Source: Chloroflexota bacterium
Lineage (GTDB): Bacteria; Chloroflexota; Dehalococcoidia; Dehalococcoidales; UBA2162
Reading direction: 5' to 3'
Assembly (NCBI GenBank): GCA_043812795.1
Contig: JBDRLU010000042.1
Span: forward strand, 13,903 to 77,902
Length of the DNA stretch: 64,000 nucleotides
In this document: positions 4,412 to 59,605 of the stretch, piece by piece
Layout of the letters: every line of letters begins with the position of its first letter
Numbering within the stretch: position 1 is the first letter of the stretch
Notes under the pieces: generated by a model
What the model was told of the DNA's origin: nothing
The model's input: the letters and a program-made list of their open reading frames with translations, nothing else
The model's database searches: none
Program-made: the position numbers and the translations under genes

Positions 4412-6400
4412 ATGATGGCGAAGAACTCGGCAAACCAGAAAAGAAGAGTGCATTTCGAACCGGGAAATGTTGACATCGTTGTCGAACCGGGAGCTAACCT
4501 GCTGGAGACAGCAATTCAGGCCGGCGTACGGCTAATTGCTTCCTGCGGCGGGGAGGGCACCTGCGGCACCTGCAAGGTTGTCATCAAAGAAGGCGAGGTC
4601 GAAACCAAGCGCACCGCCAAGCTTTCCGACGAGGAATACCAGCGGGGAGTGAGACAGGCATGTCAAAGTAAAGTCATTACCGATTTGAAGGTTTACTTAC
4701 CCGTGGAATCAAGGCTGGAAACGGCCATCCTGGTCCGAGAGCAAAAGTCAACTGGTGCCCGGCAGCAGGAAGCTCTGGCCACCGGCTGGAGATTCAGTCC
4801 GCCGCTGAAGAAGTATTTTGTCGAGCTTCCGCCACCTACGCTTAACGACAATGTCAGCGACCTATCCCGATTATTGAGAGGTCTAAAACAGGACTACAAG
4901 CTGAGTAACATGACGGTAGATTTCGAAGTTGTGGCCAATCTTCCACGCGTACTGAGAGAACAAAATTGGCAAGCGACGGTAACCATCTTGGTAACGGCGG
5001 TGGAATCACAGACAGCTGCCCGCCGCCGGCCAAGGTTGGTTAACGTTGAACCGGGGGATACCCGGAAGCAATACTATTCCCTCGCCATTGACATCGGCAC
5101 AACTACCGTAAAGGCCCAGCTACTCGATTTAACCCGGGGACGGGTTATCGCGGAAGACGCCGACTATAACGGCCAGATTAGTTATGGCCGTGATGTCGTT
5201 ACCCGTATCACCTACTGCCAGCGTCCGGATGGGCTACCGACGCTACAAAAGGCCGTCGTCACTACCATCAACGAAATACTCGGTCGTTTGCTCGTCCAGA
5301 GTAAGGTTGACGTCGGGAATATCGGCCACGTAATCGTCGCCGGTAATACCACCATGCTCCAGATTCTGCTCGGTATCGACCCTAAATATATCAGGCTGGC
5401 GCCTTATACTCCCGCGGCTACTTACGTACCGCCGGTAAAGGCTAAATCGCTCGGCGTCAAGGTCGGGGGGCACGTATATCTTTTCACCTTCCCTCTCGTC
5501 GCCAGCTATGTCGGCGGTGACATCGTATCGGGAGTAGTTGCTGCTGGAGTACACCAGACCAAGAAACTGACTTTTTATATGGATATCGGCACCAACGGCG
5601 AAATTGTCATCGGGAAATCGGATTGGATGGTAACCGCCGCCTGTTCCGCCGGTCCCGCTTTTGAGGGTGGTGAGATAAAGCACGGCATGATCGCCACCAG
5701 CGGCGCTATCGAAGACTTTAGTATTGATGCTACAACTATCGAGCCGACCATCGGCACTATCGGTGACGAGAAACCCAAAGGCATCTGCGGCTCGGGGCTA
5801 ATCAACATCGTAGCCGGTCTGCTTGAAGCCAGGGCCATCAGTCCAAATGGGAAATTCAATACCGACTTGCCCGGCAAGAGAATCAGGGAGGGCAATGAAG
5901 GCTACGAATATGTTCTCGCCTGGGCGCCGGAGACACAGACAGATAAAGATATCGTCATCACCGAGACCGATATCGATAACCTCATGCGGGCTAAAGCGGC
6001 GATGTACGCCGGCTGCCAGACGCTGGTCAAAAGCGTCGGCCTTACCTGCAACGATATCGAGCAGGTAATTATTGCCGGGGCTTTCGGTAGCTATATTAAT
6101 ATTGAAAAGGCAATCACCATCGGTCTGCTGCCTGACCTGCCGCGGGAAAAATTTATCTTCATCGGGAACGGCTCCCTGATGGGAGCCAGACTGGGCTCGT
6201 TCTCCATCGATATCCTCGATGAAGTGAGAAGAGTCGCCAGGTTAATGACCAATTTTGAGCTGAGTGAAAACGTCGATTTTATGAATAATTATGTAGCCGC
6301 CCTTTTCTTCCCCCACACTAACGCCGACGACTTCCCCAATATTACCGAAAAACTTGGTGGGAAAAAGAAACGCACCTCGAAAAGGAGAGTCACGGTTTGA
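4412..6400 (+). CDS. acsV: reductive activator of corrinoid Fe-S protein (RACo/AcsV-like): 2Fe-2S ferredoxin domain plus ASKHA ATPase
   Basis: N-terminal CGGEGTCGTCKV plant-type ferredoxin motif, then an actin-like ATPase motif (AIDIGTTTVKAQL). 662 aa. Confidence 0.75.
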   Translation: MMAKNSANQKRRVHFEPGNVDIVVEPGANLLETAIQAGVRLIASCGGEGTCGTCKVVIKEGEVETKRTAKLSDEEYQRGVRQACQSKVITDLKVYLPVESRLETAILVREQKSTGARQQEALATGWRFSPPLKKYFVELPPPTLNDNVSDLSRLLRGLKQDYKLSNMTVDFEVVANLPRVLREQNWQATVTILVTAVESQTAARRRPRLVNVEPGDTRKQYYSLAIDIGTTTVKAQLLDLTRGRVIAEDADYNGQISYGRDVVTRITYCQRPDGLPTLQKAVVTTINEILGRLLVQSKVDVGNIGHVIVAGNTTMLQILLGIDPKYIRLAPYTPAATYVPPVKAKSLGVKVGGHVYLFTFPLVASYVGGDIVSGVVAAGVHQTKKLTFYMDIGTNGEIVIGKSDWMVTAACSAGPAFEGGEIKHGMIATSGAIEDFSIDATTIEPTIGTIGDEKPKGICGSGLINIVAGLLEARAISPNGKFNTDLPGKRIREGNEGYEYVLAWAPETQTDKDIVITETDIDNLMRAKAAMYAGCQTLVKSVGLTCNDIEQVIIAGAFGSYINIEKAITIGLLPDLPREKFIFIGNGSLMGARLGSFSIDILDEVRRVARLMTNFELSENVDFMNNYVAALFFPHTNADDFPNITEKLGGKKKRTSKRRVTV

Positions 6401-9257: not shown

Positions 9258-10208
9258 ATGATGGTATTTGAGATTCCGAAAACACTTTATAGCGGCAAAA
9301 TCAAAGAAATAGCTTTGGGCAAAGGCGATAAGTCAATCACGGTTGGCGGCGAGACAGCCTACCCGTTTTATCAGTTCGAAGGCAAAATGCCACACGCACC
9401 CAGAATCGCCATGGAAGTCTGGGACTCTTCGACTGAAGACTGGCCGGAAGCCGCCATCGAACCCTTTGCTGATGTCATCAACGACCCGGTTGCCTGGGCG
9501 AAGAAATGCGTCAGTAACTACGGGGCCGAGATGGTCTGCCTGCAATTAATCAGCACTGACCCCAATGGGATGAACCGTAGCCCTGAGGAAGCGGCGGCCG
9601 TAGCGAAGAAGGTAGCTGACGCTATCGACGTCCCTTTGATTGTCTGGGGCGTAGCTAACGTCGATAAAGATACCGAAGTGCTCAGAACGGTCGCTGAGGC
9701 CTGTCAGGGGAAAAACCTGATTCTAGGACCGGTTGAGGAAGCCGGCCACAAGAAGATAGGTGCTTCCGCCATTGCCTACCATCACACCATTGCAGCTTCG
9801 ACTCCCATTGACATTAACCTGGCCAAGCAACTGAATATCTTGCTCGGTAACCTGGGTGTGCCGGAAGGCCAGCTCATTATCGACCCGACCGTCAGCGGCA
9901 TCGGTTACGGCATCGAGTACGCTTTCTCGGTGATGGAAAGAGTTAGAATGGCCGCCCTGACCCAGCAGGACGATAAACTGCAGTTCCCGATAATTTGTAA
10001 CGTCTCGAAAGAGGTGTGGAAAACAAGAGAAGTAAAAATCCCCACCGCCGAAGACCCCAAGCTCGGCGATGTTAAGAAGAGGGGTATCTTAATGGAGGCC
10101 ATGTCGGCTACCGTGCTGCTTATCGCCGGCGCCGACGTTCTCATTATGAGACACCCCGAAGCAATAAAATTAGTGCGTGAAGTGATAGCCGATTTAACCG
10201 CTTCATAA
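9258..10208 (+). CDS. acsD: corrinoid/Fe-S protein small subunit (AcsD/CdhD-like)
   Basis: 316 aa TIM-barrel-like CFeSP delta subunit sequence. RBS aaaggagg. Sits beside acsA, acsB and acsC. Confidence 0.85.
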   Translation: MMVFEIPKTLYSGKIKEIALGKGDKSITVGGETAYPFYQFEGKMPHAPRIAMEVWDSSTEDWPEAAIEPFADVINDPVAWAKKCVSNYGAEMVCLQLISTDPNGMNRSPEEAAAVAKKVADAIDVPLIVWGVANVDKDTEVLRTVAEACQGKNLILGPVEEAGHKKIGASAIAYHHTIAASTPIDINLAKQLNILLGNLGVPEGQLIIDPTVSGIGYGIEYAFSVMERVRMAALTQQDDKLQFPIICNVSKEVWKTREVKIPTAEDPKLGDVKKRGILMEAMSATVLLIAGADVLIMRHPEAIKLVREVIADLTAS

Positions 10209-15808: not shown

Positions 15809-16687
15809 ATGATCCTTATCGGAGAAAGCATCAACATAATGTCCAAGACCATCGGCCCGGCAATGCGCGAGAGAAACGCCCAGCCGATTCAGGATATGGC
15901 TAAAGCCGAGACTGATGCCGGGATGGACTACCTCGATATCAATATCGGCCCGGCCCGGAAGGCCGGTGATGAATTGATGAAATGGATGGTCGAGACCGTG
16001 CAGCAGGTGACCAACTTGCCTTTGTCCCTCGATACCACCAATCCGGTCGCTATGGAAGCTGGTCTGCAGGTTCATAAGGGCAAAGCCCTCATGAACTCGA
16101 TTTCTTTACAGCCGGCCCGGATTGAAGCAGAATTGCCCATGGCCAAGAAATACAACGCCAACATGATTGGTCTGCTATGGGGCGTCGAAGGAATGCCGCG
16201 TGATGCCAACGAGCGGGCGGCCCTAGCCGTTGACCTCATTTACAAAGCGTCTGAAACAACTATCCCTAATGAAGATATCTGGATTGACCCCATCGCCAGC
16301 CCGATATCGGTCGAAATCAACCAGGTGAAATCATGCGTCGAGTTTATGAGTATGCTGGGTGAAATTGCTCCCGGCTGCAAATCGACCGTCGGTCTGTCCA
16401 ATATCTCCAACGGCACACCCGCTGAACTACGGCCCATCCTTAATCGGACTTACCTGATAATGCTGATGAAGTACGGCCTTTATTCCGCCATTGTTGACCC
16501 GCTGGACACCGAACTGGCGAAAATAGCCAAAGGGCAAATGCCCGAAATCGTTGACCTGGTATACCGCATGATGGATGGCGACAAACCCAACATTGCTACG
16601 CTCAGCAAAAAGGAAGCGGAATATGCGAAAACAGTCCGTGTCCTTACCGGAGAGACGCTCTATTCCCATTCCTGGCTTGAGATATAG
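15809..16687 (+). CDS. acsE: methyl-THF:corrinoid/Fe-S protein methyltransferase (AcsE)
   Basis: Pterin-binding domain sequence (MILIGESINIMSK..., LDINIGPA). Start moved to ATG 15809, which follows gggaggaaaag. Confidence 0.85.
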   Translation: MILIGESINIMSKTIGPAMRERNAQPIQDMAKAETDAGMDYLDINIGPARKAGDELMKWMVETVQQVTNLPLSLDTTNPVAMEAGLQVHKGKALMNSISLQPARIEAELPMAKKYNANMIGLLWGVEGMPRDANERAALAVDLIYKASETTIPNEDIWIDPIASPISVEINQVKSCVEFMSMLGEIAPGCKSTVGLSNISNGTPAELRPILNRTYLIMLMKYGLYSAIVDPLDTELAKIAKGQMPEIVDLVYRMMDGDKPNIATLSKKEAEYAKTVRVLTGETLYSHSWLEI

Positions 16688-16712: not shown

Positions 16713-17609
16713 TTGACAGTTAAAGAGCTCCCTGTTGTCTGGTTGCAGACAGCCTGCTGTACCGGTTGCTCCGTTTCCCTCCTCAATTCAGCCAGCCCGA
16801 CCATTAAGAACATCCTTATTGACCAGATAATTCCCGGCGTCCACATCAATCTGCGTTTCCATGCCACGATAATGGCTGGCTCCGGCGAACCGGTGCTCCA
16901 GGTTCTTGAAGACACCGCCAAGAACAAGAGTGGGGAATACGTCCTTTGTGTTGAAGGCGCTATTCCGACCGCCACTGATGCCAGTTACGGAGTCCTGGGT
17001 GAGCGGGGTGGCAAGCCCGTGGGGATGCGGGAGAGGGTAGAGGAGCTTGCCCGGCAGGCGCTGGCCGTACTGGCCGTCGGCACTTGCGCTTCTTTCGGTG
17101 GTATCCCGGCCGCCGCCCCCAATCCCACCGGCTGCAAACCGGTACGCCAGATACTTGCTGAGAAAGGTATCAACAAACCCTTAATCAATCTTCCCGGCTG
17201 CCCACCCCATCCCGATTGGTTCGTGGGAACGGTGGCCAGTATCTTACTCAAAGGATTACCTCAAGCTTCCAAATTAGATGACAATTTGAGGCCCCTTGCC
17301 TTCTATGGAAAACTGATTCATGAGAACTGTCCCCGCCGCGCCTATTTCGATGAAGGTAAATTCGCCAAAAAGCCGGGCGAAGAAGGGTGCCTTTACGAAC
17401 TGGGCTGCAAAGGGCCGATTACTTACGCCGACTGCCCGCTGCGACGGTGGAACGGCGGGACGAACTGGGTTATCGGTGCCGGTGCACCCTGTAACGGTTG
17501 CACTCAGCCTGAATTCCCCGATGGGACGTCCCCCTTCTATCAGAAACTGGCCGAAATCACCGCACCCACTGTCGGCGCCTACTGGCAGGCGAGTAAGGAG
17601 ACGAAGTAG
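16713..17609 (+). CDS. [NiFe]-hydrogenase small subunit, no Tat signal
   Basis: 298 aa. VVWLQTACCTGCSVSLLN proximal-cluster motif and a C-terminal GCKGP...CNGCTQPEFPD motif. No RRxF leader. TTG start after aaaggagag. Confidence 0.85.
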   Translation: MTVKELPVVWLQTACCTGCSVSLLNSASPTIKNILIDQIIPGVHINLRFHATIMAGSGEPVLQVLEDTAKNKSGEYVLCVEGAIPTATDASYGVLGERGGKPVGMRERVEELARQALAVLAVGTCASFGGIPAAAPNPTGCKPVRQILAEKGINKPLINLPGCPPHPDWFVGTVASILLKGLPQASKLDDNLRPLAFYGKLIHENCPRRAYFDEGKFAKKPGEEGCLYELGCKGPITYADCPLRRWNGGTNWVIGAGAPCNGCTQPEFPDGTSPFYQKLAEITAPTVGAYWQASKETK

Positions 17610-34802: not shown

Positions 34803-34918
34803 CTCTTCTCCTGAAGGAGGGAGGGAATGAAACAAAAGAAGGGGGCAGTTTGCCCCCTTCTTTAAAATCTTCCCCTTCCCCTGGACTTAGGGGAAGGGGA
34901 CAAAGGGGTTAGGGTAAG
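34803..34918. repeat. intergenic repeat, family A variant (paired G/C-rich hairpins)
   Basis: gaagggggcagtttgcccccttc and cttccccttcccctggacttaggggaaggggac hairpins, then aaggggttagggtaag. Confidence 0.4.
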
Positions 34919-41468: not shown

Positions 41469-41476
41469 GAAAATAC

Positions 41477-41547
41477 CCCATCCCCCTGTCCCCCTTCCCC
41501 TAGTAGGGGAAGGGGGTAAAATTTTAAAAAGAGGGCTACACCCTCTT
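41477..41547. repeat. intergenic repeat, family A variant (inverted order of the two hairpins)
   Basis: cccccttcccctagtaggggaaggggg followed by aagagggctacaccctctt. Confidence 0.4.
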
Positions 41548-42576: not shown

Positions 42577-42662
42577 AGCCGTCAGCTTTAAACTATTTAT
42601 TTCCATTCCGACGACACGTCGTCCTTTAGCGAAAAGACGTCTTGCAATGACAATTGTAAGGA

Positions 42663-42750
42663 GTTGCTAGAAGAGGGCGAAGCCCTCTTATTCTTATTTC
42701 CCCCTCTCCTTTTAGGAGAGGGTTCACCCTGAAGGGATTAAGGGTGAGGT
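42663..42750. repeat. intergenic repeat, family A
   Basis: The first ~60 nt (42663-42722) match 44598-44658 with one mismatch plus a 1-nt length difference in the terminal G run. Hairpins are agagggcgaagccctct and ccctctccttttaggagaggg. Confidence 0.65.
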
Positions 42751-44497: not shown

Positions 44498-44597
44498 TGA
44501 ACTATAAACAAGAGAAGAGATTTTTAAAGAGAAAGGGCGTGTGCCTCTTCTTTTACTATAGTCCTATTTGGTTTCGGTTGAGGGTAACTCAATAGAA

Positions 44598-44676
44598 GTT
44601 GTTAGAAGAGGGCGAAGCCCTCTTATTCTTATTTCCCCCTCTCCTTTTAGGAGAGGGGTTAGGGGTGAGGTGAGAG
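44598..44676. repeat. intergenic repeat, family A
   Basis: Near-identical to 42663-42722 over ~60 nt, then diverges (ggttaggggtgaggtgagag). Confidence 0.65.
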
Positions 44677-44725: not shown

Positions 44726-45607
44726 TTACAGTTTTTCCAGCAGCCGGTACATATTGCGGTAGGCTTTAGCGAAGTCCGGGTCGATCCGCTTCATTTTCCC
44801 GCTTAAATCTTTCATGCGGTCGATAAATTGCCGCTCGTCTTTGTTCTTGACGATATCAGTCCAGAGTGCGGTGTTTTTCTGGAACCGGCCTTCGATTTCA
44901 GCCAGCCTGGGCAGGTGCATCTGCAATGACGCGTAAAGCTCGGGGTCTTCCAGCAGGACGCTTTTAGCCAGGGTGACCAGCAATTTGTACGTGCTGCCGC
45001 CGATAGCTTCTCTTTCCTTCGCTTTACCCAGATTGAGCAGCGTATCGGCGGAGACGATGGCGATAAAATGGGCCAGTCCGAGGACAACAGCCATCATCTC
45101 ATCGTGTTCCTGCGGGCTCATCAGGGTCACGCTGGCGCCGCGCTGTTCCAGGTAGGCCTTGATTTTTTCGGCCAGAGTTGCTTCCATATCGTTGGTCGGG
45201 GTCAGGACGAAGTTTTTCCGGACGATACTCCGGGCACCGGGACCGAAAAGGGGATGGACGCCCAGCACCAGACCGCTCTTGACATAACGGTGCATTATTT
45301 CTACCGGGGATGTCTTGACGGAAGTGATATCGATGACTATCTGTTGGGGCTTGAAGTAAGGCCGTAGCTCTTTGACCACGGCCTCGAAATTATCCATCGG
45401 TACAGAAAGGACGACGACGTCGGCGGTCTTAATGGCTTCGCTGTTCGAGGCAATGGCCACGCCCAGCTCTTTCCCCGCCTCCTCGAGTTTTTGCTGGTTG
45501 CGGCCGGTGATAACCACTTCCATACCCTCTTTCAGAAGGAAACTGGCCGACCACCGCCCCATCTTCCCCGACCCGCCGATGATAGCCACTTTCATACGTT
45601 TTTTCAT
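44726..45607 (-). CDS. tyrA: prephenate dehydrogenase
   Basis: 293 aa with MKVAIIGGSGKMG Rossmann motif and TyrA-like sequence. Confidence 0.85.
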   Translation of the reverse strand: MKKRMKVAIIGGSGKMGRWSASFLLKEGMEVVITGRNQQKLEEAGKELGVAIASNSEAIKTADVVVLSVPMDNFEAVVKELRPYFKPQQIVIDITSVKTSPVEIMHRYVKSGLVLGVHPLFGPGARSIVRKNFVLTPTNDMEATLAEKIKAYLEQRGASVTLMSPQEHDEMMAVVLGLAHFIAIVSADTLLNLGKAKEREAIGGSTYKLLVTLAKSVLLEDPELYASLQMHLPRLAEIEGRFQKNTALWTDIVKNKDERQFIDRMKDLSGKMKRIDPDFAKAYRNMYRLLEKL

Positions 45608-46047
45608 AGTGTGACCATTTTAACCTTATCGGCTAGGTTTTGGCTAGTAGCCCTGCCGGTTTTTGCTCTGTTGGCACAGTGGAGAACTATGCTTATAATA
45701 CACGTATAGGGAGAGGTGCCAGACAGAATAAAATGACAAAACCATTGATAAAGAAGTACGCTGTTCGTCCCACTCTTGAATCATCCTACGCGGCAATTGC
45801 CAAAGACAGAAAGCGAGAGAAAGAGGCTATAGAATAGGCTGAGATTGCTTTCCAGGAATCGTGCTGCACAAAATTGAGGAAGCTATCAAAATACAACATG
45901 ATATTTGTTAGAAAACTGATGCAGTTCTAATAGGCTAGGTGGTTTTCTTATACTTTAACACCTACGTCAGACGCGTTAGGTTTGACACGTTAGATATAAA
46001 GACTTAAGCTAATAATCGAAATATAACACTATAGGTTACTGCGGGAA

Positions 46048-46950
46048 ATGGACGTATCTGGAACAGTAGGCTTGGTATTTGGCGCTATAGGTCTAATTGG
46101 AGTTATTTATACCGTTTATTATGGTCAAAAGGGCCTAAGGAAAAAACTTCTTGTGTTTCATAATTCAATGGCAATACCTCTCGCACAAGCGTACTCACCT
46201 GGAGATGATTATAGACTGTCAGTCTTGTACCAAAGAAAGGGTTCTAACGAGGAGAGAATTGAAAGCGTTTACACAACTTTTTTGAAATTCGCAAATCTCG
46301 GTAAAGAGCCGATACGTGGTGTTGACATAGCCCCTTCTAATCCAATCAAAGTTATCGTTGAAAGCGCACGTACTCTTGACATTCAAATAGAAGCAATAAC
46401 TAGAAAAGTGAATAATGTATCCATAAGAAATCCAATATTAGCAGATAATGAATCGTCAGCAGAAGTTCATTTCGATTTTCTGGACTTTAAAGACGGAGCA
46501 CTAATTAAAGTTTTGACTGTTGGTGACAAGGGGAAGATTTCACTCTCAGGCGATATCATTGGTATGCCAGAAGGTATAATAAAGATTGGGGAAGCTGGCA
46601 GGGACGAATTTGAAGGGTCTTCAATTTCCGGATGGTCTGCTTTAGGTCTTTATATTGCATCGTTAGCGTTATCTGCGTTTATCTTTTATCTAGTAATTGG
46701 GACATGGGATAAAATATGGTTAGTCGTCGTACCTCTTTTTGTTTTGCTTACATTAGCGGCATTAGTGTTAATCCCTATCTCGTTATGGCTTATGCGAAAA
46801 CGGTCTTTCCCCAAAAACCTTGACTTACCTAAATGGTGTCGTTCCATTATTCCGTATCCAAGGCGCATGATGCGCAAACGACTATCAGAAATGAAATTGG
46901 AAGGAAAGACAGCTAAACCTGTGGACTTTCAGATTTCGAAACATTTATAA
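46048..46950 (+). CDS. orphan membrane protein in AT-rich islet
   Basis: 300 aa: N-terminal TM, a ~170 aa soluble region, two C-terminal TMs and a basic tail. About 40% GC by hand count of one 60-nt line. No family recognised. Confidence 0.5.
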   Translation: MDVSGTVGLVFGAIGLIGVIYTVYYGQKGLRKKLLVFHNSMAIPLAQAYSPGDDYRLSVLYQRKGSNEERIESVYTTFLKFANLGKEPIRGVDIAPSNPIKVIVESARTLDIQIEAITRKVNNVSIRNPILADNESSAEVHFDFLDFKDGALIKVLTVGDKGKISLSGDIIGMPEGIIKIGEAGRDEFEGSSISGWSALGLYIASLALSAFIFYLVIGTWDKIWLVVVPLFVLLTLAALVLIPISLWLMRKRSFPKNLDLPKWCRSIIPYPRRMMRKRLSEMKLEGKTAKPVDFQISKHL

Positions 46951-47063
46951 ATAATAATAATTAGCTATCCGTTAACTAACAAAATGGAAAATCCCCCTGG
47001 CCTTTTACTGATTCGGGGATTTTAACCCCAGTTTTAGTAGCCAAAGTAGGATTTAACCAAAAA

Positions 47064-47169
47064 CTACTTTACTTCGCCTTCGGATATGAACCCAGGACTT
47101 TGAGGAAAAGGGCGGACTGCTCAAGACTCGCCAGAGTTTCCATGGCGATTTTGTCCTCGCGGTGGCCTC
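47064..47169 (-). repeat. displaced duplicate of the pheA 3' end (copy C)
   Basis: Roughly 85% identical by eye to 48536-48640. The minus strand reads [32 protein letters not shown], against the real PheA tail [32 protein letters not shown]. Confidence 0.8.
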
Positions 47170-47184
47170 AAATAGGAACAATCT

Positions 47185-47392
47185 CTACTTCAAAAGTCTA
47201 ATAAATTCCTCAACGCTGATATCCGCCGTACGGATGATTTCCCAAACATAGATGGATAACTTCTTTGATATTATCCAAGGCTTCTTCGCGCGTCTTGCCC
47301 TGCGTAAAGCAACTTTTGAGTACGGGCACTTCGGCCACGTAATAGCCATCTTCGTCCCGTGTGATAACAACCGGCAGTCTTAATTTTTTCAT
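47185..47392 (-). pseudogene. decayed hicB-hicA-like module: antitoxin N-terminus joined out of frame to a HicA-like C-terminal tail
   Basis: MKKLRLPVVITRDEDGYYVAEVPVLKSCFTQGKTREEALDNIKEVI is HicB/UPF0150-like. A different frame ends ...EIIRTADISVEEFIRLLK*, resembling HicA tails. Confidence 0.4.
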
Positions 47393-47469
47393 GGTTCATC
47401 CCGCTTCTTTTTTTAATTATAGCATACTGCTTGTTGGGTACGGCTGTTTGGATTTAACCTTAGCCGTCG

Positions 47470-47553
47470 CTACTTTGCCCTTGGATATGACCCAGCACCT
47501 TGAGGAAGGGAACCTAATCTTCGCCAATCTTTGCGACAAAATCCCCTTGCCTC
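47470..47553 (-). repeat. degenerate duplicate of the pheA 3' end (copy B)
   Basis: ctactttgcccttggatatgaccc... still reads GSYPRAK* at its end, but FLKVLG lies in another frame. The upstream flank ggatttaacc is shared with copy C. Confidence 0.55.
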
Positions 47554-48081
47554 TTGTTTTTCCCTGACTTACAATATTATTACGTTTGTGCGTAGCCGTT
47601 AACTTAAACGCTCCGTCAGATTCTGGCCGCTGGAGTCAGTTCAGGGTAATCGGGAAGACCCTGCCATTGACCAGCAAAGCGGTAACGCAGGTCGCCGGAC
47701 AGAGACCGTCAAGTCTTGGGTCCACAGGCCGCCCCCCTTTGAGTCGGTTGGCTGTCGACAAGGCTCTCGTCAGAATCGCCCCCGGAAAGTCCAGTAAGGG
47801 ATGAATATCGGCTCACTCCGTCCCGGAAAATCATGGTTATCGGCGGTTTTTGGCCATGCCGGAGCCTTGGCCTACTATCACGGGACCTGAGCAACTTTGG
47901 TTTTCGGGAGACCAGTTACCTCTCATTATCTTCTGATATGAGAATGCCTCCGCATACCCGGTAGGGTTTGTTTTTGTAAAAAATGCACCTTAACAACAAA
48001 ATTAGAATTAGAGTTTCTTACTTGCCCGCCATATACACGTCACGGAAAAAGTAGTAAAATTTCTCATATAGGAGTCTAGTG

Positions 48082-48294
48082 ATGGAAAAGGAAATAATAT
48101 TTCTGGTGGAAGAGGATGAGACCGAGGGCGGTTATACCGCACGGGCCCTCGGTCATGACATCTTTACTGAAGCCGAGACTGTTGGAAAATTGAAGGCCAT
48201 GATTCAAGACGCAGTCAACTGCCATTTCGATGAAACAGAGAGGCCATCGATTATCCGTCTGCACATTGTTAAGGACGAGGTCATTCCGGCGTGA
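48082..48294 (+). CDS. HicB-like antitoxin (small family often misannotated as 2-oxoisovalerate dehydrogenase)
   Basis: MEKEIIFLVEEDETEGGYTARALGHDIFTEAETVGKLKAMIQDAVNCHF...IRLHIVKDEV. Its stop overlaps the GTG of the downstream hicA (gtga). Confidence 0.6.
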   Translation: MEKEIIFLVEEDETEGGYTARALGHDIFTEAETVGKLKAMIQDAVNCHFDETERPSIIRLHIVKDEVIPA

Positions 48295-48535
48295 GGCTGC
48301 CGAGAAACTTGAGTGGCCTGGAACTGGCCAAGCTTTTGGCAAAATATGGTATCAAATCACTCGTCAGACAGGCAGCTATCTCAGGTTAACATCTACTATC
48401 AAAGGCAAAGAGCATCATCTAACCATTCCGAAGCATAGTCCCCTGAAAATTGGTACGCTCTCAGGCATCGTTACCGATATCGCCGGATACCTGGAGATAG
48501 ATAAGAGAAAGTTACTCTCGGAACTATTCAGGTAA
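48291..48535 (+). pseudogene. hicA: HicA-family toxin gene disrupted by a 1-nt deletion
   Basis: Frame 0 reads VRLPRNLSGLELAKLLAKYGI and stops at 48387-48389. Frame -1 continues YQITRQTGSYLRLTSTIKGKEHHLTIPKHSPLKIGTLSGIV.... The junction is at ggt(t)atcaa, ~48350. Confidence 0.65.
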
Positions 48536-48538
48536 CTA

Positions 48539-49606
48539 CTACTTCGCCCTTGGATAAGACCCCAGGACTTTGAGGAAAAGGGTGGACTGCTCCAGGCTCG
48601 CCAGCGTCTCCGTGGCGATTTTGTCCTCACGGTGCCCTTCGAAGTCGAGGTAGAAGTTGTATTCCCACGGCTTCTGGCGGGTGGGTCGGGACTCTATCTT
48701 GGTCAGGTTGATATTACGTACGGCCAGTTCTTTGAGGAAATCGTATAACGCTCCCGGCTTGTGCCTGACCGAGAAAACGATGGACGTTTTGTCGTTACCG
48801 GTGGGCGGGGAATCGTGCTTGGCCAGCACAAAGAACCGCGTGAAGTTATGCGGGTTGTCCTCAATCTCGCGGGCGAGGATTTCCATGCCGTAGATTTCAG
48901 CGGCGCGGGCGCTGGCAATGGCGGCGCCGTCGGTGATGCCTTTTTCTTTAATCATTTTGACGCTGCCGGCGGTATCATAGGTCGGTACCAGTTCGCGACC
49001 TAAATGTCTCAGAAAAGCCTGGCACTGGCCGAGGGCTTGCGGATGGGAATAGACCCGCTTGATAAGCTCGATCTTGGTCCCCGGGTTGGCAATGAGGCAA
49101 TGGCTGACCCGCAGCCCGGTCTCGCCGCAGACGAGCAGGCTCGAATCGAGCAGTAAGTCATAAGTGCGGCTGATACTGCCTTCGAGAGAGTTTTCGATAG
49201 GCACCACGGCGAACTGGGTCTCGCCTTCCTCGACGACCTTGAAAACGTCGTCCAGGCTTTCACAGGGCCGGGCCTGGACGGCATTACCGAAGAACTGGTA
49301 GGCGGCTTCCTCGCTATAAGCCCCGACTTCCCCCTGGAAAGCGACGACAACCCCTTGCACGCCTTTGGACATGCGGATGAGCTGACGGTAAACATTTTCG
49401 ATATCGGCCGGGTTTATTTTTTCGGCACGGGCCAGCTTCTTTACTTTGTCGATGACAACTTTTTCCCGGTTGTTATCCGTCACCGGCTGGCCGCTGGCCT
49501 TTTTGGTCCGCCCGATTTCCTCGGAAATGCGTATCCTTTCGGCAATGAGCTTGATAAGCTGGGCATCGACTTTATCGATTTTCTGGCGGAATTCTTCCAG
49601 GCTCAT
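48539..49606 (-). CDS. pheA: bifunctional chorismate mutase / prephenate dehydratase
   Basis: 355 aa with an N-terminal CM domain ([22 protein letters not shown]), a PDT domain and a C-terminal ACT domain. Confidence 0.9.
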
Positions 49607-59231: not shown

Positions 59232-59605
59232 GGGTCAAGTGGACCGGGTGACCGCTCCCTTCATCGAAGGGGGAGGAAAGTCCGAACTCCACCGGGCAGG
59301 ATGCTGGGTAACGCCCAGGAGGGGTGACCCTACGGAAAGTGCCACAGAAACATACCGCCAGCGGTCCTTCTTCGGAAGGATGCGGGCAAGGTTGAAATGG
59401 CGAGGTAAGAGCTCACCAGCGGACCGGGTAACCGGCCGGCTGGGCAAACCCCATCCGGAGCAAGACCAAATAGAGGGACGTAAGGATGCCCGGCCTGTCC
59501 CCGGGTTGGTCGCTTGAGCCCGATGGTAACATCGGGCCTAGAGGGATGGTCACCGTCCTTCACTTGTGAAGGACACAGAATTCGGCTTACAGGTCCACTT
59601 GACCC
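59232..59605 (+). ncRNA. rnpB: RNase P RNA, bacterial type A
   Basis: P1 pairing gggtcaagtggacc/ggtccacttgaccc. Conserved GGAGGAAAGTCCG, AGTGCCACAGAAA and ACAGAAttCGGCTTA blocks. ORFs over it are spurious. Confidence 0.9.

Follow-up and report, generated by a model that had tools for sequence, protein, structure and literature searches.

Repeated pheA 3′-ends at a split pheA–tyrA junction in a Dehalococcoidales contig: a possible gene-end integration site

Prophage e14 and phage 21 are found at the icd gene of E. coli. According to one report (PMC13626634, citing Hill et al. 1989), a replacement gene end is brought in, the gene remains functional and a displaced fragment, icdC, is left that differs mainly by synonymous or conservative changes. 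In Dehalococcoides, the islands found at ssrA are arranged in tandem, have a low GC content and are each bounded by a repeat of the 3′-end of the target (McMurdie et al. 2011, PMC3146451). Tandem arrays have also been documented for Salmonella genomic island 1 (SGI1) (PMC2297512), which occupies the 3′-end of trmE. The staphylococcal cassette chromosome mec (SCCmec) occupies the 3′-end of rlmH. Here we describe a 64-kb stretch of a metagenome-assembled contig from a member of the Dehalococcoidales (the window, whose positions are used for all coordinates of the repeat copies), in which pheA and tyrA are separated by an islet that includes repeated copies of the pheA 3′-end. As judged from its sequence, the locus resembles e14 at icd and the tandem islands at ssrA, but neither a recombinase gene nor an independent attP accompanies it. 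No report of pheA as a docking site was found among the papers searched.

The likeness to e14 lies in the target, which is the 3′-end of a protein-coding metabolic gene, in the replacement end and in the displaced C-terminal fragment. The difference is that e14 is a single element that keeps its integrase and excises, whereas the window locus has pheA as the target, three tails and integrase-less relics of 0.3–1.4 kb. The ssrA islands occur in members of the same bacterial class and share the low GC content, the tandem arrangement and a single-copy essential target; some of them are without integration genes and are regarded as fixed. They differ in their target, a transfer-messenger RNA (tmRNA) gene, in their fixed 20-bp repeat, in their module with the serine recombinase DsiB and in their size, from kilobases to tens of kilobases. 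In contrast, the repeats in the window are 40–107 nucleotides (nt) of coding sequence, and the islet contains no recombinase. A DsiB/DsiA module with the 20-bp ssrA repeat was not found, and the 64-kb window has neither a tRNA nor a tmRNA gene. SGI1 and SCCmec share with this locus the site-specific use of housekeeping protein gene ends, but their att cores are short (18 bp in SGI1), their recombinases are intact and both are large resistance islands.

The pheA gene (48539-49606, minus strand) is full length and encodes a protein of 355 amino acids (aa) with CM_2, PDT and ACT domains, in which residues 1-355 align with those of relatives. This protein is identical to one from a metagenome-assembled genome (MAG) at NCBI, and the next closest in a search of 5.8 billion proteins is 77% identical. 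The prephenate dehydrogenase gene tyrA (44726-45607, minus strand) has Pfam PDH_N (9e-26) and PDH_C domains. The domains thus confirm both gene identities proposed in an earlier description made from the nucleotide letters alone (the sequence-only reading), in which pheA and tyrA were said to be split by an islet. The gap between the two genes is 2,931 nt. The islet had been described as richer in AT than its flanks; this holds overall (GC 0.433, compared to 0.543 in tyrA and 0.559 in pheA), but not at 47600-47900, where GC is 0.57. In the orientation of pheA, the array reads pheA(A) / segment 1 / C / segment 2 / B / B′ / segment 3 / D / tyrA.

Copy A is the 3′-end of the working gene (48539-48638, minus strand), with 33 codons and a TAG stop at 48539-48541; its repeat span is 48534-48638. 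Block B is a displaced tail (47049-47168, minus strand) in which 32 intact codons (47072-47167) are followed by a TAA stop (47069-47071); its spacer ends in GGTTAAATCC (47049-47058). Comparison of A (48534-48638) and B (47062-47168) showed 87-88% identity over 99-107 nt (blastn E 7.6e-31 to 1.7e-29), an alignment score that was reached by 0 of 500 shuffles. The recurrence had been recognized by eye as about 105 nt at 47064-47169 with roughly 85% identity, reading as a 32-codon PheA-like tail plus stop with three substitutions. The computed alignment and the translation agree with this description, the substitutions with respect to A being T to M, T to A and R to K. Since an in-frame TGA is located just upstream of B, no pheA body is attached to it; an unrelated gene precedes it. 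The T to M change in B also generates an in-frame ATG, which opens a 24-codon mini open reading frame (ORF) at 47069-47143 on the minus strand.

Block C is a decayed tail (47450-47507, minus strand) of 12-13 codons that has lost 1 nt. Its stop is the TAG at 47470-47472, and its spacer also ends in GGTTAAATCC (47450-47459). Its similarity is significant only over 47450-47507, i.e., 39 nt of tail with the 1-nt deletion and 20 nt of spacer. Identity is 87% over 39 nt between A and C and 76% over 59 nt between B and C, and none of 500 shuffles reached either score. All three tails therefore stand above the shuffle level. A decayed copy had been placed at 47470-47553 by the sequence-only reading. 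The copy exists, but it is confined to the shorter span, because the similarity of the region upstream of C (47508-47553) to the tail is no better than that of shuffles.

The spacers add a second repeated component. The sequence GGATTTAACC follows both B (47049-47058) and C (47450-47459), and the 10-mer common to the B and C ends is absent elsewhere in the window. When both strands of the 64 kb were counted, GGATTT(T)AACC occurred three times, always inside the islet and on one strand, so that the shared outer flank GGATTTAACC noticed earlier is indeed restricted to the islet. The shorter ATTT(T)AACC occurred seven times; four of these sites lie on one strand of the islet, that at 45617 beside tyrA among them. 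A related sequence, ATTTTAACC, sits 9 nt from the tyrA ATG. The presence of the flank motif next to the tyrA start (about 45617) had been noted before; the motif is there, but its significance is marginal (9-10 nt exact, p ~0.06; gapped, p 0.02-0.05). Motif counts and gapped alignments point to two further blocks on the minus strand, a short spacer-like copy, B′ (47017-47045; GGCTACTAAAACTGGGGTTAAAAT in pheA orientation), and a spacer remnant by the tyrA start, D (45617-45655; GGCTACTAGCCAAAACCTAGCCGATAAGGTTAAAAT in pheA orientation). The gapped alignments gave p ~0.017 for D versus B′ and p ~0.047 for D versus the C spacer. Both blocks, which bracket segment 3 with its membrane-protein gene, are probable members of the repeat family.

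A perfect inverted repeat of 6-7 bp with a loop of 14-16 nt begins no more than 2 nt past the stop of each tail copy (48510-48537, 47043-47070 and 47440-47467). The stems are unlike in sequence, while the loops of B and C contain the shared GGTTAAATC. The individual chance of these hairpins is 0.014-0.076 and such a hairpin was present in one of 52 relatives; the observation was made post hoc.

Small cassettes that include toxin-antitoxin (TA) genes could be part of an integron-like array or of an array that exploits Xer/dif recombination, in which no element-encoded integrase is needed. The heptamer GTTAAAT of the islet fits both the GTTRRRY core and the XerD arm of dif. However, the integron attC idea was rejected, as only the 7-mer fits: there is no inverse core site to act as partner box and no attC-like hairpin, and single-strand folds are no better than those of shuffles (z +0.2 to -1.4). 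The clusters of attC sites lacking an integron integrase (CALINs) are likewise arrays of small, promoter-poor cassettes, often of TA genes, without an integrase nearby; they differ from the window locus, where the repeats are plainly pheA coding sequence and lack attC structure. The Xer/dif (IMEX) idea was also rejected, since a relaxed dif consensus had 4 matches versus 2.95 expected, the one in the islet (46957-46977, 3 mismatches) adjoins none of the repeat blocks and there is no GC-skew switch. Either version of this explanation is extremely improbable.

The differences among the tails were then used to assess where they came from. Among the 96 coding positions compared, A and B differ at 12, and 9 of these differences fall at third-codon positions (synonymous rate dS 0.54, non-synonymous rate dN 0.043, dN/dS 0.08, Fisher P 9e-5). 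Relative to A, copy C has four substitutions, every one synonymous and at a third position, in addition to the 1-nt deletion. Two of the variant residues of B, A and K, are also found in the working PheA of relatives. Because the divergence is nearly synonymous only, most of it arose when the tails still terminated functional pheA genes. The spare copies represent alleles of other lineages, brought in or displaced by the incoming DNA, and not duplicates that decayed in place. Such a signature of functional ends is expected if incoming DNA brought its own copy of the gene end. The alternative is a duplication of the pheA end in place, by slippage or as a target-site duplication, followed by neutral decay. 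The frameshift of copy C would fit it, and near-identical junction duplications found in three relatives (L004, L033 and L017, described below) could be fresh target duplications. However, neutral decay of B in place predicts about 20 non-synonymous differences and only 3 were observed (P ~1e-6), B keeps an open frame and its stop, and all four substitutions between A and C are synonymous. In-place duplication was rejected on the basis of the dN/dS value and the lack of a non-synonymous excess, and we consider it very unlikely.

The array might also be an artefact in which strain variants of the pheA end were stitched together in tandem during assembly, a concern raised by the origin of the sequence, a MAG, and by the many related MAG contigs that break just after pheA. 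On the other hand, the copies share no identical run longer than 22 nt, which is below the usual assembly k-mers, and each spare tail is joined to coherent, unrelated cargo (a promoter and a gene) and not to a pheA body. The short identical runs and the coherent cargo therefore make an artefact highly improbable.

The sequence-only reading had proposed a comparison with related genomes, on the grounds that the islet could turn out to be conserved core sequence. Of 80 species-level relatives that encode PheA, 61 have tyrA in the retrieved DNA as well. In 56 of these 61 the site is empty: pheA and tyrA are adjacent, with tyrA starting 7-122 nt (usually 10-25 nt) after pheA. The adjacency includes the closest relatives, L090 and L092, which have 76-77% PheA identity. 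Since the genes are adjacent in 56 of 61 relatives, the 2.9-kb islet is an insertion into an ancestrally tight pheA–tyrA junction, which cut tyrA off from the aro operon as had been suggested.

The remaining five relatives have 0.5-2.7 kb inserted at the junction, with DsbA-like, GNAT, HicBA, NYN, DUF2971 or unknown cargo. The pheA/tyrA junction is not uniquely hot; aroD/aroE and other aro-operon junctions also hold small inserts. Some peculiarities of these loci were recorded in passing. In L090, two small opposite-strand ORFs lie between aroE and aroA (5282-5718), several aro genes are split in two in the gene calls and the gap between pheA and tyrA contains a hairpin repeat. Several relatives have hairpin elements of the CCCCCTCTCCC/GGGAGAGGGGG type, similar to a dispersed two-hairpin repeat of the window (described below), after the pheA stop. 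Of the 80 related contigs, 7-9 end less than 500 nt past pheA.

Taking these results together, we propose that the locus was left by Campbell-type integrations at the pheA end/tyrA start, at least two and probably three in number, an interpretation to which we assign about an even chance of being correct. In this pathway, each small element would have entered where the pheA 3′-end meets the tyrA start, through one reciprocal recombination, and each incoming circle would have carried its own pheA tail and a short spacer. As the tail would come with the circle, pheA would be left complete and the spare tail would be pushed toward tyrA. Repetition of this event could have built the array pheA(A) / HicB-HicA / C / HicB fragment / B / B′ / membrane gene / D / tyrA, after which the integrase genes and most of the cargo would have been deleted or broken. 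Several properties expected from a gene-end integrative element were found. The spare tails are direct repeats of the target end in the same orientation, the target gene has kept its full length, the displaced copy consists of a C-terminal fragment alone, the replacement end is foreign but functional, and the site is empty in related genomes. The existence of three co-oriented pheA tails implies at least two insertion events. The earlier description of the pheA 3′-end as an attachment site used at least twice is thus supported as far as the number of events is concerned, but not in its assumption of a site-specific integrase. A promoter-like pair on the minus strand (TAGCCA, 18 nt, TAAAAT; 45617-45646) ends 9 nt before the tyrA ATG and lies in the repeated GGTTAAAAT motif. 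This predicted promoter in block D may now drive a nearly leaderless tyrA transcript.

The cargo of the islet provides a link to elements that do have an integrase. The 300-aa membrane protein encoded in segment 3 (46048-46950) was described at first as an orphan, a label that has to be dropped because 75 homologues were found, mostly on very short contigs. In L100, a member of this family is carried by a 6.5-kb element at tRNA-Leu that is flanked by 86-nt repeats and has genes for a tyrosine integrase and an excisionase-like helix-turn-helix protein. In L102, the family is present in a tandem pair of islets downstream of tRNA-Lys, with three 44-nt copies of the tRNA end and an adjoining truncated integrase. 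The order in L102 is repeat, integrase remnant, membrane gene toward the target and repeat, and segment 3 matches it minus the integrase. The L100 and L102 loci thus have the same membrane-protein family as cargo and the same layout with respect to the target as the window locus, and they differ in their tRNA targets and in that the integrase, or a fragment of it, is still present. On long contigs the gene was also found as a lone insert between core genes, e.g., rplT and pheS in L093. The likeliest agents of the integrations would be tyrosine-integrase elements of the kind that carry this membrane-protein family at tRNA genes in related Chloroflexota.

Other repeats were seen around these elements. 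The segments at 46961-46982 and 47589-47608 contain similar motifs of the form TAGC..CCGTTAACT(T)AA(A)C, and CGTTAACT occurs on the plus strand at only those two places in the 64 kb, each a few tens of nt from a repeat block. These motifs may be putative relics of recombinase-binding sites. Five GGTTAACTTTT repeats surround the integrase gene of the L100 element. In L095, direct repeats of about 100 nt (4536-4637 and 5333-5462), 87% identical over 77 nt and of the GTCATTGCGAGGAACGAAGTGACGAAGCAATC type, bracket an RHH/ParE toxin-antitoxin pair that lies downstream of a phosphatase gene.

A number of results weigh against serial integration. No integrase or recombinase domain was detected in any ORF or stop-free frame of the islet, and tblastn with two integrases as queries found nothing in it. 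The same attachment sequence was not found on elements elsewhere. An integrase-bearing element with the pheA end as attP had been suggested as a search target, and none was found in IMG/VR or in a metagenome pattern scan: a search of IMG/VR with PheA returned no relatives, the nine IMG/VR matches to a 17-mer of the tail do not extend and are therefore due to chance, and the sole match in the one metagenome scan for the pattern of tail end, 6-24 nt and GGTTAAAT is a chance occurrence in a queC gene. The five junction inserts in relatives have neither an integrase nor tail repeats, and extra pheA tails were absent from about 100 related loci, whether each locus's own tail was compared to its downstream DNA or a PheA-tail peptide was compared to all loci. 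Within the islet, the duplicated lengths are unequal (107, 59 and about 30 nt), copy A is without the shared GGTTAAAT spacer, and blocks B′ and D are of marginal significance only. Finally, the sequence comes from a metagenome-assembled contig.

The rest of the window was covered by an eye check of the ORF list and by tblastn with the same two integrases, which gave one weak match at 1232-1375. The earlier statement that no integrase is left in the window therefore stands for the islet and has to be qualified by this match elsewhere. When translated, the matching stretch resembles the N-terminal part of the tyrosine integrase of L100 (35% identity over 48 aa; E 4e-4 within the window). It is intergenic, beside a hairpin repeat and 44 kb from the islet, and it may be an integrase remnant or a chance similarity.

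Inserts at other junctions of related genomes add to the points against serial integration. In L004, an insert between aroC and pheA that encodes a secreted 156-aa protein is flanked by a 37-nt repeat (36/37 identical; 9271-9307 and 9970-10006). An insert between aroB and aroD in L033 carries an AbiV gene and a repeat of 24-30 nt (4787-4816 and 5626-5655). The insert after leuD in L017 has a DUF4389 membrane protein gene and a 147-nt repeat with 96.6% identity (16048-16194 and 16956-17102). Each of the three inserts is a single gene without an integrase, with the junction duplicated and both neighbours intact. Such integrase-less inserts make a homology-driven or duplicative route a serious rival. 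According to it, the islet would be the product of integrase-free cassette traffic, in which an illegitimate or duplicative insertion is followed by homologous recombination between lineages with the pheA tails as the homology. This explanation is possible but less probable than serial integration. The same holds for its proposed vehicle, a cassette that moves as a circle with one repeat copy or via the conserved flanking genes.

Variable repeat lengths, unlike a fixed att core, the small inserts at several aro-operon junctions, which deprive pheA/tyrA of a unique status, and the lack of an integrase in the islet all agree with cassette traffic, and foreign tails are equally expected from a donor of a related lineage. 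On the other side, the tails are 12% diverged and their longest identical run is 22 nt, which makes them a poor RecA substrate. The occurrence of three events at a single junction, and the identical 10-mer at which B and C both end, suggest site specificity, and integrase elements demonstrably carry members of this cargo family. Nor does this route account for how the first duplication arose. A more general form of the idea, which we regard as doubtful, is that Dehalococcoidales have an integrase-free route that adds single-gene cassettes, for defence, TA or membrane proteins, at tight or overlapping junctions, with 24-150 nt duplicated and the neighbours intact. Equally doubtful is the extension that the duplicated segment acts there as a handle for excision, transfer and re-insertion, the pheA array being a multiply used case with the tail-plus-hairpin as the handle.

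If the serial integrations are confirmed, the pheA 3′-end will join icd, trmE, rlmH, ssrA and tRNA genes as a gene-end docking site; we hold with moderate confidence that a known process has here used a new target gene. The locus would then show how streamlined Dehalococcoidales gain and erode small defence or TA cargo inside an essential operon while the neighbours are kept. If, instead, the integrase-less junction inserts prove general, they would represent a mode of gene gain that is missed by island-finding tools keyed to integrases and tRNA genes. The test based on synonymous-only divergence can be reused to separate a foreign replacement end from a local duplication when the integrase is gone.

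The sequence-only reading had mentioned decayed TA modules between the copies, which were found as a HicA gene with a frameshift and a HicB fragment. Segment 1 starts with a left part (47508-48078) that has no recognizable gene and no Pfam match in any stop-free frame, and that includes the GC-rich stretch. Folding of both strands of 47580-47990 gave z-scores of -0.7 and -0.5, i.e., no signal of structure, and no Rfam match was obtained there. This part is followed by an intact HicB-family antitoxin gene (48079-48294, plus strand; 70-71 aa) with more than 1,500 homologues of 69-70 aa, annotated as 'RNase H-like HicB family nuclease' or '2-oxoisovalerate dehydrogenase'. The homologues are too widespread for the donor to be traceable. 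Next is a hicA toxin pseudogene (48291-48535, plus strand) with one frameshift near 48350, in which the C-terminal frame matches HicA_toxin at 1.3e-4 and the rejoined gene matches phrog_353, 'toxin', at 2e-6 across the frameshift junction. The two adjacent small genes make up a HicAB module at 48079-48535 with HicA split by the frameshift. The hicA and pheA genes are convergent, and their stops are 3 nt apart.

Segment 2 (47170-47449, minus strand) contains a HicB-like antitoxin fragment of 60 aa (ORF 47210-47392) that is truncated or frameshifted. It comes with a promoter-like TGCTATAAT of its own, matches Pfam HicB_lk_antitox at 2.7e-6 and phrog_497 at 4e-12, and has no toxin partner. Segment 3 (45656-47016, plus strand; GC 0.39) has a strong promoter-like site at 45671-45699 (11/12 match) and the membrane-protein gene. 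The protein is predicted to have an N-terminal transmembrane helix, a beta-sandwich domain and two C-terminal transmembrane helices. Its AlphaFold model has a mean confidence score (pLDDT) of 80.9, and a fold search returned only generic beta-sandwich matches with E values of 0.003 or worse. It belongs to no Pfam, PADLOC or PHROG family, and a profile of the family found nothing in IMG/VR. Low GC content and TA-module cargo were counted in favor of foreign inserted islets.

An Rfam search of the whole window at the gathering threshold, and of the islet at E up to 5, gave no match in the islet. Outside it, the bacterial class A RNase P RNA was located at 59236-59605 (314.8 bits). The window also contains a dispersed two-hairpin repeat, AGAGGGCGAAGCCCTCT ... 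CCCCCTCTCCTTTTAGGAGAGGG, at 42659-42722, 44594-44657, 41474-41536 and 34852-34916. Two of its copies are 97% identical over 64 nt, and one of these two is found just downstream of tyrA.

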